Positions 5,034 to 61,803 of a stretch of DNA of 64,000 nt are shown here, one piece after another (the first letter of the stretch is position 1; every line of letters begins with the position of its first letter). The notes below the pieces were generated by a model. That model ran no database searches. It was not told the origin of the DNA and saw nothing but the letters and a program-made list of their open reading frames with translations. Origin of the DNA: an uncultured Bdellovibrio sp. (GTDB lineage Bacteria > Bdellovibrionota > Bdellovibrionia > Bdellovibrionales > Bdellovibrionaceae); contig CAWVRN010000010.1 in NCBI GenBank assembly GCA_963932905.1, positions 54,809-118,808 on the forward strand, in the 5' to 3' direction. The position numbers and the translations under genes were made by a program.

Positions 5034-5962
5034 AACTGCACTCTGACTTCCTGTTCCCAAAGATCTTGACGATCGTAGGCTTCATTTAGGCCAAGCTCAT
5101 TCAAAATCGACTTAACTCGTTCCCCGTGTCCCTGCTTAAACGCCAAAAATAAAATATCGGCACCCAAAGCGCCGCAACCTTTAGCAAATACGATCTCTGA
5201 AAACCGATTTAATTTACTGAGTAATTCTTGAGTGTGAGGATGAACCAAGTCCAATGATTTTAAGCTATCATTCCAACCGTTCAATCCCTCTATAAATCCA
5301 TCGCTGTCTTTAGCATGCAAAGACACCATCATTTTGTCTGATAACTGCGACAAGCCTTTTAAAGAATCAGTATTTAGCTTTCCCAAATGTACATGAGTCG
5401 CAACCTTGAACCCCGTCGGTACAATATAGAATTCAAGCTCCGAGAACGGCCAAACCATACGTTGGTGATTAAACTGAACATCACCGTTCGTTGTGATTCG
5501 TTTAACTGTGCAGACAGCACCAATCAGCTGTGCCCACAAATCATAACCACTTGGCAATTGTGCCGGCAGCAAATCAGGATTTAATTGTCTATTCACGTCC
5601 TGATAGTCTTGCCAGATCGATTTATAAAATGAACTTTGAGAAAAAGTTGTATCAGCAGCCTCAGTTTGGCGTTTAAAAAAAGACAAACCAATAAACTGAG
5701 CCGTGCTGGCACCGAATCCACCGCGCCCATCATAGTGATCTTTAAAGGTTACTTTCCAAGACGAATAGAAGTCTTTGTTGTTTTGATAATACATTCCCGC
5801 TGGCGATTCAGGATGGAACGGACAAATTTGTTTTTCTGTCGAAGCTTCAAATTCCATATCAAAACCGGGCTTAGTCGTGATCAAGAATGCAGAACCGCCA
5901 ACAAGAGCGGCGTACTCTCCGAAACAAAATGTTTTTCCTGGAATTTGAAGGTGGTATTTCAA
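5027..5962 (-). CDS. Divergent GHMP kinase, probable phosphomevalonate kinase
   Basis: PGKTFCFGEY, GFGASTA, PSGYD and KGCGALGAD motifs; lies between mvaA and mvaD. Confidence 0.7.
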   Translation of the reverse strand: MKYHLQIPGKTFCFGEYAALVGGSAFLITTKPGFDMEFEASTEKQICPFHPESPAGMYYQNNKDFYSSWKVTFKDHYDGRGGFGASTAQFIGLSFFKRQTEAADTTFSQSSFYKSIWQDYQDVNRQLNPDLLPAQLPSGYDLWAQLIGAVCTVKRITTNGDVQFNHQRMVWPFSELEFYIVPTGFKVATHVHLGKLNTDSLKGLSQLSDKMMVSLHAKDSDGFIEGLNGWNDSLKSLDLVHPHTQELLSKLNRFSEIVFAKGCGALGADILFLAFKQGHGERVKSILNELGLNEAYDRQDLWEQEVRVQLC

Positions 5963-57793: not shown

Positions 57794-60042
<2,249 letters not shown>

Positions 60043-60062
60043 AACTGAGTCCGTCTGGCAAA

Positions 60063-60431
60063 CTAAAGACTGCTCCAGAGCTCCATTATATCCTGATACT
60101 CGCTAGGCTCCATCTCGTAGTATTCCAAACCGGCTTCATTTAAATTCATACCCAAGGTAATAAAATGTCCATCTTGATACGTTAAAACAAACTTCGTTTG
60201 TCCCCGCGGCGGTTTACCGGGAACCACCGTCGTCTTATTAAGCATTAATCCGTCGATAAACGACATTAAGCTATATAATTGGGCCGCATCAACGATAGCT
60301 TCCCAATTTTCCCCGTTCACGATTCCGGTCAGTTGTAGTTCAGAAATGAATAATGTTACATCAAAATGATCACGACCAGTTCGAACGACTCGAATTGTTT
60401 TTAAGCGACTTGCTGAAATTTTTTCTGCCAT
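60063..60431 (-). CDS. Hypothetical protein
   Basis: 122 aa ORF with protein-like composition, co-oriented with queA. Confidence 0.6.
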   Translation of the reverse strand: MAEKISASRLKTIRVVRTGRDHFDVTLFISELQLTGIVNGENWEAIVDAAQLYSLMSFIDGLMLNKTTVVPGKPPRGQTKFVLTYQDGHFITLGMNLNEAGLEYYEMEPSEYQDIMELWSSL

Positions 60432-60480
60432 GAAAACAGCATAAGGAGAATTAAAGACAATGGCTAGTTACATTTTAGAC

Positions 60481-60511
60481 AAAAAAAAGCGGAAGGCTTT
60501 AAGCCTTCCGC
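60481..60511 (-). terminator. Intrinsic terminator
   Basis: gcggaaggc-ttaaa-gccttccgc followed by T8 on the minus strand. Confidence 0.88.
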
Positions 60512-60765
60512 AGGAGAACTTACTCATGTCGGGGAACCACCAAACCCTCATGAGAGTTTCTCCAAAAAACCAAAGGAGAAAATGAAACACTATGAACCAC
60601 AAACCTATTAAAACTTAAATCATTCCAAGGACTCTGAAAGCCATCCTAGCTTCCGTAACGAGTCCTTGTGGGCGCTGGCTTTGCTCATCCAGTCACGTTC
60701 CTCATTGAACTAGCTGCTTCCCATCCTGTCCGGCTTTCTTCATCCTTGAAGTGCCTTTCATTAGT
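60481..60765 (-). ncRNA. Putative CsrB/RsmZ-like small RNA (GGA-rich); 5' end uncertain
   Basis: Ten GGA motifs in about 130 nt (CAAGGAUG, CAGGAUG, CUGGAUG, CAAGGAC, ACGGAA, UAGGAUG and others), some in hairpin loops; ends in a strong intrinsic terminator; no long ORF. Confidence 0.62.
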
Positions 60766-60912
60766 AAGACGCTACTCCCCCCTTTAGGGGTTAATCGGTT
60801 GGACGATTTTTGTGAAATATTTTATGTTTTTTAGTCAGCTGGGCCTAAATCTTGTTATTTTACTTTAAGTTTAGATATAGAGCACCACGGTTCTTCATAA
60901 TCCATATCTTTA

Positions 60913-61422
60913 TTAAATCTGGTTTTGGTTCCAAGCTGCGACGGCCGGGGGTAATAGCGGACTCGTTATATCGACTTTGGCTAGCGAAAGGATTTCCTTA
61001 GGCGACACCGAGCCGCCCGTTTTTCTTAAAAATCGAGCCCGCACAATCGCCTCGGCGACAAGCTCCCCGCCTCGCAAAAACCTCTGCTGCAAAACAAAGG
61101 CTTTTTCGTCCCAGCCCAAAACAGTAGTTTCAATAAAAAAGCGCTCAAACAGCTTCAATGATTTTTTAAAACGGATCGATTCCGCCACAACAACCGGATA
61201 CATTCCATATTTATTTAGGTCTGCCCACAGACCGGCGCGGATCATCAAATCGACGCGGGCCAAATCCATAATGGAAAGATATATCCCATTATTCATATGC
61301 CTTAGAACATCAAGATCACCGAGTGAACACCGAAACGGAGTTAGGCACGGGCCTAAAACAGAAACTTTCGATCTAAACCGCGCAAGAATAGAAACCAAAA
61401 GTAATCGAATAAACAAATTCAC
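60913..61422 (-). CDS. Hotdog-fold thioesterase family protein
   Basis: DLDVLRHMNNGIYLSIMDLAR. Confidence 0.88.
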   Translation of the reverse strand: MNLFIRLLLVSILARFRSKVSVLGPCLTPFRCSLGDLDVLRHMNNGIYLSIMDLARVDLMIRAGLWADLNKYGMYPVVVAESIRFKKSLKLFERFFIETTVLGWDEKAFVLQQRFLRGGELVAEAIVRARFLRKTGGSVSPKEILSLAKVDITSPLLPPAVAAWNQNQI

Positions 61423-61440
61423 GGCTAACTCCGAAGGAAA

Positions 61441-61803
61441 CTATTTAGCTCGCACCAAGGTTTTAAACTTACCGGCACTAAATCGCTTCATATCGAATAA
61501 CATTTCTGGAAACTTTGATGGATCCATTCGTGGATCCGCTGCCACTTTTTTATTTACACTCGTGCAATGTGCTTTTGATTTATAAACGATGTAAGCAAAG
61601 ATCAATGTTTCGTCTTTTTTCAATTTACATAATTTTGTAAATGGAATGCCCCACGGGGTATCTAATTTATCAGCAACGCATTCGTAGTAATCAAGGGCGC
61701 CATGATCCATCCATACGTTGCGGCCAACCGTCGCCATTTTTTTATAGCCATTAAGATGTTTCTTTTTTATTGGGATAACAAATCCGTCAATATATCTACC
61801 CAT
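61441..61803 (-). CDS. DUF1428 (YbaA-like) protein
   Basis: YIDGFVIP, HGALDYYEC and DPRM...FDMKR. Confidence 0.88.
   Translation of the reverse strand: MGRYIDGFVIPIKKKHLNGYKKMATVGRNVWMDHGALDYYECVADKLDTPWGIPFTKLCKLKKDETLIFAYIVYKSKAHCTSVNKKVAADPRMDPSKFPEMLFDMKRFSAGKFKTLVRAK

Follow-up and report, generated by a model that had tools for sequence, protein, structure and literature searches.

A conserved RNA gene of the Bdellovibrio family with CsrA-consensus hairpin loops, and its possible role as a sigma-driven CsrA decoy

An intergenic stretch rich in GGA in the genome of an uncultured Bdellovibrio raises the question of whether bacteria that carry fliW may also make an RNA that antagonizes CsrA. 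In the available text of two reviews, sRNA decoys and FliW are described as mutually exclusive ways of CsrA control (PMC7366521), and whether both act within one species is called undetermined (PMC7652899). The window analyzed here (the whole stretch of DNA, 64,000 nucleotides) had received a first-pass annotation that placed a CsrB/RsmZ-like, CsrA-sponging sRNA on its minus strand. We found an RNA gene at this position, with the following parts and context.

60481..60761, minus strand: RNA gene of about 280 nt, a sharp-ended block conserved in the genus; first base inferred
60732..60755, minus strand: hairpin 1, whose longer stem ends in a CUUC-AAGGAU-GAAG hexaloop; a high-affinity CsrA site by prediction
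60690..60731, minus strand: GGA-rich linker of variable sequence, in which one GGAACG (60696-60703) is conserved in part
60626..60668, minus strand: hairpin 2, predicted second CsrA site; AGGAU loop at 60636-60654, outer-stem GGAs paired
60570..60590, minus strand: U-rich tract with an anti-Shine-Dalgarno-like CUCCUU, a possible pairing seed
60513..60563, minus strand: 3' hairpin with a near-invariant 11-nt loop, UUUGGUGGUUC, at 60534-60544
60481..60511, minus strand: intrinsic terminator (60489-60511 with a U run)
60702..60761, minus strand: leaderless 19-codon frame from the predicted first base
58981..60042, minus strand: queA, the downstream neighbor (Pfam PF02547), given for context only

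The RNA gene has a thioesterase-like gene (60913-61422) on one side and, on the other, a hypothetical gene preceding queA. Its start was placed by the distance from the -10 box to the leaderless AUG of a sigma factor gene and by the contig starts on one homologue, and the ends proposed earlier, 60481 and 60765, lie about 4 nt or less from those given here. The motif count of the first-pass annotation was reproduced, since 10 GGA occur on the minus strand of 60626-60745, of which four are part of a GGAUG and one of a CAGGAUG. Such a density, 10 GGA per 130 nt, occurred in 1 of 38,624 sampled intergenic windows of the genome, namely the one containing the RNA gene itself, and in 27 of 909,056 genome windows of any kind. 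In the full-length fold, the two GGAs previously assigned to hairpin loops were unpaired with probabilities of 0.97 and 1.0; the other eight were mostly paired (unpaired probability 0.0-0.36), and two of these eight belong to the outer stem of hairpin 2. The 5' and 3' halves had folding z-scores of -3.06 and -3.51 relative to shuffles, and the strong terminator already recognized lies at 60489-60511, with a U run. The description of the region as free of reading frames needs a qualification: no ORF of at least 50 aa overlaps the RNA gene, but a leaderless 19-codon frame starts at its first base, and most homologues encode a peptide (see below). A plus-strand 9-codon frame with a good Shine-Dalgarno sequence was considered as part of a toxin-antitoxin system and rejected, being absent in relatives.

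The distribution of the RNA gene was then investigated across the order. A covariance model of its 3' end matched 40 of the 42 Bdellovibrio-family genomes, usually in a single copy, and only 1 of 108 other genomes of the order, this last one weakly; csrA was present in 102 of these 108. One weak match to the model (L299) consisted of the terminator only. All nine same-genus genomes matched, in a block running from just upstream of the promoter through the terminator. Of 103 family genomes, 88 contained a 16-mer around the 3' loop, as a rule in one copy; other families stayed at about the control level. When a genome collection was scanned, 89 of 109 matches fell in records labelled Bdellovibrio, Pseudobdellovibrio or their higher taxa. 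Of the remaining 20, 14 had no promoter and look like chance matches, while six were complete units in other or vaguely labelled bins; two of the complete units, L066 and L093, came from bins labelled Hyphomicrobiales and Bacillota, where mis-binning is likely because the sequences are close to Bdellovibrio-family units. Altogether 151 loci were examined. The loop and terminator were present in 150 of them and a promoter within reach in 117, which reduced to 95 distinct units of 146 to >400 nt; the 33 loci without a promoter include the 14 chance matches plus loci that were cut short. The parts shared by the family are an ECF-type promoter, 5' hairpins with ANGGAN loops, the 3' hairpin with its 11-nt loop, and the terminator. 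Moreover, three homologues recovered by the 3' model alone also have the promoter and the GGA hairpins.

None of the families compared accounted for this RNA. Against Rfam, positions 59500-61500 gave 11 matches up to E = 10, with no CsrB, CsrC, RsmX/Y or PrrB_RsmZ among them; four homologous loci likewise gave no Csr sRNA family, and no riboswitch was found in either search. The best match, Hrs12, reached 31 bits against a cut-off of 70, was driven by the U tract and terminator, and was rejected. The comparison with merRNA suggested earlier showed the two RNAs to be distinct, with no shared loop motif by eye; in fact, none of the eight printed sequences of merRNA and APsRNA1-7 has the loop motif (by eye), and identity with any of them was rejected. 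In the openly available part of the Bdellovibrio and CsrA/FliW literature we found no description of this RNA. It is a real and apparently undescribed RNA family of the Bdellovibrio family.

The 5' region is the part that suggests CsrA. Within the first 170 nt, GGA-loop hairpins numbered 2.29 per unit with a peptide gene (n = 75) and 1.75 per unit without one (n = 20), compared with 0.12 in dinucleotide shuffles and 0.00-0.01 on the other strand; GAA-loop hairpins, as a control, numbered 0.43 in peptide-bearing and 0.10 in peptide-less units. At least two GGA-loop hairpins occurred in 87 of 53,494 genome tiles of equal size. In 36 of 40 variants the first hexaloop is ANGGAN with a C-G closing pair, a form that agrees with the CANGGANG hexaloop and the SELEX consensus of CsrA as given in the accessible text of PMC4894983 and PMC7652899. 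Its stem alternates between GAGC/GCUC, GGGC/GCCC and CUUC/GAAG, with several pair types per position. Because MAFFT could not align hairpin 1 across genera, its four stem pairs were counted on a gapless set anchored at the loop, and 36-38 of the 40 distinct family variants retain them. The loop letters of this set were fixed by the search rule, and one of its 40 rows is out of register. ANGGAN loops have been selectively retained on changing stems. Within the genus type, conservation held for the loop sites and not for the motif count: both loop sites of hairpins 1 and 2 were kept in all 11 units, but the total of GGA in the same segment ranged from 4 to 10 and dropped to 4-8 in relatives, the ten being special to this genome. 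The linker GGAACG was present in 9 of the 11 units, the other linker GGAs were variable, and in three relatives a two-sided change in the outer stem of hairpin 2 removed its GGA.

Most homologues are also small messengers. A hydrophobic peptide gene of about 33-46 codons with its own Shine-Dalgarno sequence was detected in 75 of the 95 units (69 by motif and 6 more by profile). The peptide has a single membrane span and a motif of roughly FC.FYS.VV..SLW.T (for example L119:1354-1476, and 74 other units); no Pfam match was found, and of eight close matches those with names are called hypothetical. It has been lost from the RNA studied here, and a search elsewhere in the genome found none (best E 0.18). 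In 31 of 68 units the Shine-Dalgarno sequence of the peptide lies itself inside a GGA loop, the layout of a CsrA-repressed mRNA. The hairpins persist in 19 of the 20 peptide-less units, although 7 of the 20 have fewer than two GGA-loop sites by the hairpin rule, and these units are not independent because 11 of them are one genus type. The shortest form, L027, is 147 nt long and consists of the two hairpins and the 3' module only. Considering that the hairpins were kept after the peptide was lost, and that this short form exists, the sites probably matter beyond peptide control. A leaderless AUG 5-7 nt past the -10 box was present in 14 of the 20 peptide-less units and in 1 of the 75 others. 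The length of its frame ranges from 3 to 49 codons, and the 19-codon frame of this genome probably has no conserved product.

The promoter was found directly upstream of the RNA.

60788..60794, minus strand: predicted -35 box TTAACCC, ECF-type
60765..60771, minus strand: predicted -10 box CGTCTTA, 16 nt from the -35 box

The spacer was 16 nt in 80 of 94 units, and the consensus reads TTAACC-N17-GTC(T/A). Invariance of the promoter across the 95 units is built in, because the promoter was part of the search rule; independent support comes from three held-out loci and from the same motif at an ECF sigma gene. The site before the RNA gene was the top-scoring one of the genome, with a matrix built from the homologues, this one included. 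That ECF sigma gene (G000:C2:261057, L163) has the promoter directly before its leaderless start in 19 of 30 loci. By eye, its product carries the region-4 residues listed for Bd0743 in the available part of PMC3464611, and because these residues agree we take the two proteins to be probable orthologues. The same source, in that part, reports that no E. coli-type RpoE consensus was seen; the leaderless start of the sigma gene behind its own promoter would supply a consensus for a Bd0743-like sigma. The FliA motif printed in the accessible text of PMC3627812 misfits the conserved boxes and was rejected. The matrix scan of the genome returned 58 sites, including one at a LuxR/GerE-type HTH gene. 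Other candidate members of the regulon are G000:C53:2933, C1:218224 (minus), C1:144678, C6:155141 (minus) and C1:507892 (minus), and the leader of G000:C53:2933 has an AUGGAU motif and further GGAs.

Expression was followed with a homologue from another genus, the peptide-bearing locus of B. bacteriovorus YOA24 (L137). Eleven RNA runs and four possibly-RNA runs hold 0.36-0.51 of the L137 words, roughly what the predicted transcript accounts for; four further RNA runs hold almost none. Contigs from four runs of four studies (X1, X7, X9 and X12) were placed on the near-identical locus L026. Against a predicted start of about 1246, those of X7, X9 and X12 start at 1251, 1265 and 1239, with no cover just upstream. 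The 204-nt contig of X7 (1251-1454) had a depth of 11,853, compared with 42.5 upstream and 136 downstream. High depth was seen in this one run of the four; X9 and X12 showed no excess, and X1 runs through. As contigs give neither strand nor true level, these data hint at transcription of the homologue and at its abundance in one condition.

The host has the protein that such an RNA would bind. One csrA gene is present, as the earlier proposal presupposed, and is adjoined by fliW; in the family, all 42 genomes searched for csrA have it, as do all 40 searched for fliW. The two genes are 352 nt apart (L002:1915-2266), and a GC-rich repeated element with the core seen upstream of csrA is likewise present in the flgN-flgK spacer (L166). 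This CsrA keeps R44, N55 and the long C-terminus that, in the accessible text of PMC13407953, is linked to FliW binding. In B. bacteriovorus, a transposon screen pointed to an involvement of CsrA in predation, and the protein represses a reporter with a GGA hairpin (PMC13443453). For Hfq, the 98.6% complete assembly gave 0 matches to PF17209, in a search whose control was positive in 5 of 14 genomes.

A candidate target was found in the LuxR/GerE-type gene (G000:C32:18012-18480, L162), whose start codon lies in a GAGC-AAGGAU-GCUC loop. This hairpin is the family form of hairpin 1 of the RNA and was present in all 30 family loci, over which the second codon showed no synonymous change. Of the 151 genomes of the order, 128 contain a 16-mer of it, all but one of them in a single copy, with 0 in the reversed control; the occurrences were verified as luxR starts at the 30 loci only. 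The N-terminal 72 aa of the protein are 89-100% identical in 39 of 40 family genomes, and the promoter precedes luxR by at most 110 nt in 11 of 30 loci. Since the luxR hairpin is order-wide and the RNA was found in one family only, luxR does not everywhere need this decoy. Two of the six flagellin leaders of the genome show similar AUGGAU loops by eye. Judged by size and label, Bd1826 is the presumed orthologue; in Table S1 of PMC3627812 it is the sole LuxR-annotated gene, of 129 aa, with 675 and 7,092 RPKM in the columns taken as attack and growth, and in the accessible text of PMC2797640 it is down-regulated 30 min into predation. These published timing data for luxR disagree, and the tie to the attack/growth switch proposed earlier is conjectural. 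Most regions upstream of luxR (L167-L196) have a conserved box, TGTCAGACT-N5/6-ACAGG, often followed by TGGT, at 60-230 nt from the gene, possibly a promoter or operator.

The reading that we prefer, and consider somewhat better than even, is that the RNA is a sigma-driven CsrA decoy that frees mRNAs such as luxR. It draws on mimicry: the hairpin loops of the RNA copy the start-codon hairpin of luxR. A Bd0743-like sigma would start transcription near 60761; a CsrA dimer might then clamp hairpins 1 and 2, with the weaker linker GGAs adding capacity. At high copy the RNA would lower free CsrA, and luxR and flagellin-type leaders would be translated. Part of the family has this promoter before luxR too, so that the sigma would activate both the repressed message and its decoy, in a putative feed-forward loop apart from the FliW/flagellin circuit. 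The RNA of most genera would serve two purposes, its CsrA sites also governing the small membrane peptide that it encodes; in this genus the peptide was lost and the sites were kept. The candidate decoy and fliW co-occur across the family, including the genetically tractable B. bacteriovorus, and the circuit is testable, with a sigma promoter consensus and a candidate non-flagellar CsrA target whose site is almost invariant; it also brings in a small membrane protein that has no name and an RNA loop of invariant sequence. The original idea of an RNA antagonist is strengthened by a conserved standalone RNA with CsrA-consensus GGA loops, and complicated by the FliW of the same genome. Several points count against a decoy. 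The sites are few, and two conserved loop sites are little capacity for a sponge; the layout is mRNA-like in most homologues; the 3' loop is more conserved than the CsrA sites; and a second candidate sponge, resembling APsRNA1, exists in the same genome.

The mRNA-like layout leads to the most serious alternative, which we nevertheless regard as unlikely: the RNA is a target of CsrA and not an antagonist, descended from the CsrA-repressed message of a small membrane peptide, its sites affecting translation or stability in cis only and the 3' domain maintaining it in this genus. The peptide gene in 75 of 95 units, the Shine-Dalgarno sequences lying in GGA loops and the few sites per RNA all fit this history, but the persistence of hairpins in 19 of 20 peptide-less units does not, and a highly abundant target would titrate CsrA regardless, as the flaA mRNA does in the available text of PMC4894983. 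It is very improbable that another RNA-binding protein reads the hairpins, or that in this genus the 5' end is there for translation from the leaderless AUG. The frequent leaderless AUG of peptide-less units speaks for the latter, and the variable length of its frame against it; for the former, the luxR hairpin persists in three genomes without a csrA match, all of them fragmented assemblies, but the loop consensus is that of CsrA and four csrA-less genomes of family f8 are without the hairpin 16-mer. Similarly remote, in our view, is a role in cis for the queA-tgt-yajC-secDF operon, as its leader or attenuator. The neighbors of the RNA gene differ between units: 35 of 81 have queA no more than 1.4 kb downstream, which would suit such a leader, but the other 46 have none there, and the next gene is on the opposite strand in 18 of 83 (by rough ORF calls). 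Neither the Rfam search, which gave no riboswitch, nor the terminator, which covaries and is clear of the loop hairpin, supports attenuation.

The most conserved part of the RNA is not a CsrA site and was passed over in the first-pass annotation. It is the 3' loop, whose 11-12 near-invariant nucleotides are exposed on a variable stem. In 70 variants, this stem formed 5.27 bp with its own sequence and 3.15 +/- 0.14 with swapped partners; RNAalifold on alignment A2 did not recover the stem under the loop, but when the named 3' structure was counted directly, 81% of cells were paired. The terminator, which has no overlap with the loop hairpin, showed two-sided changes in 6 of 7 pairs (31 sequences). 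The anti-Shine-Dalgarno-like tract was present in 18 of 20 peptide-less units (2.0 expected) and in 12 of 75 peptide units (5.0 expected). A role of the loop as partner of tRNA 3' ends was rejected, as no tRNA of the genome ends in the complement; the 3' end of 16S rRNA was not found in the assembly.

An exposed invariant loop on a variable stem suggests pairing, and the loop most likely has a second job of this kind. That the RNA is mainly a base-pairing regulator, with the 3' loop and the anti-Shine-Dalgarno tract pairing to ribosome-binding regions and CsrA as matchmaker, is a different claim, and we think it decidedly doubtful. In the available text of PMC7652899, CsrA-promoted SR1-ahrC pairing in Bacillus is cited as a precedent, and the failure to find an Hfq match in this genome fits a matchmaker of another kind. 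The best candidate target is sucA, whose start (G000:C8:107870, minus) has a perfect 9-nt complement of the loop over the ribosome-binding region, the sole one among 2,371 start regions of the genome. Seven of 30 family loci, belonging to five genera, have ACCACC immediately ahead of the sucA start, compared with 3 of 2,371 genes of this genome, and in one genome the loop complement is before sucB in place of sucA. However, sucA was picked after this genome had been seen, two other genes equal it by pairing energy, and 23 of 30 sucA loci are without the site although the loop is invariant. Over five genomes, loop complements before start codons numbered 76, compared with 97 in the reversed control, and for the anti-Shine-Dalgarno tract 5,238 predicted starts formed an energy continuum with no standout target. 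A combined reading, in which a family-wide, ECF-sigma-driven, three-function switch RNA of the predatory cycle gives CsrA a second, non-flagellar input beside FliW, is a luxR-releasing decoy, pairs its loop with metabolic mRNAs such as sucA with CsrA in the place of Hfq, and encodes the peptide in most genera, is to our mind equally doubtful.

Among known systems, the RNA would most likely act like a two-site, dual-function CsrA-titrating RNA and not as a member of the CsrB/RsmZ group. According to PMC7366521 and PMC7652899, CsrB/CsrC and RsmX/Y/Z are likewise standalone, with ANGGA in short hairpin loops and an intrinsic terminator, and mimicry of CsrA target mRNAs is predicted for the present RNA as well. 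In contrast, they have many sites and are controlled by BarA-UvrY/GacA, whereas the present RNA has two conserved loop sites, an ECF-type promoter, a FliW-bearing host, an invariant 3' loop and a peptide gene in most homologues. Likeness to CsrB/RsmZ in the sense of membership, as first proposed, was not borne out by the Rfam searches, by the number of sites or by the promoter scan, which found no sigma-70-type promoter on the minus strand. With conserved loop sites making up no more than two of its ten GGAs, the RNA is closer to McaS or the flaA leader than to CsrB. The accessible text of PMC4894983 describes the Campylobacter jejuni flaA leader as having two GGA hexaloops and titrating CsrA in a FliW-bearing host, being both target and antagonist; flaA is a flagellin mRNA, while the present RNA is a short dedicated transcript outside flagellar clusters whose form in this genus lacks a conserved product. 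McaS and GadY of E. coli and SR1 of B. subtilis combine about two GGA sites with CsrA binding and base pairing, and the host of SR1 also bears FliW (PMC7652899, available portion). No sequence relation of these three to the present RNA was seen, and no Hfq was found in its host. SR1 encodes a short peptide.

Closer at hand, B. bacteriovorus itself has two published RNAs that resemble this one in part. The merRNA is intergenic, of the same family and a proposed sponge, but is 445 nt long and a c-di-GMP riboswitch in the accessible text of PMC3627812. APsRNA1, a published attack-phase transcript (PMC3627812), is likewise a small RNA of the same bacterial family with several ANGGA hairpin loops, but has another locus and sequence and is without the 3' loop motif. 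Its homologue in this genome (G000:C19, about 5570-5770, plus strand) lies in the flgI-flgJ spacer, shows at least three clear ANGGA hairpin loops and may, from these loops, be a candidate second CsrA sponge. Elsewhere in the genome, identical 70-nt stretches occur at G000:C1:282679, C1:350191 (minus) and C16:56617 (minus) and are probably a repeated mobile element, and five large genes beginning MYRLTAIAILL share near-identical starts.
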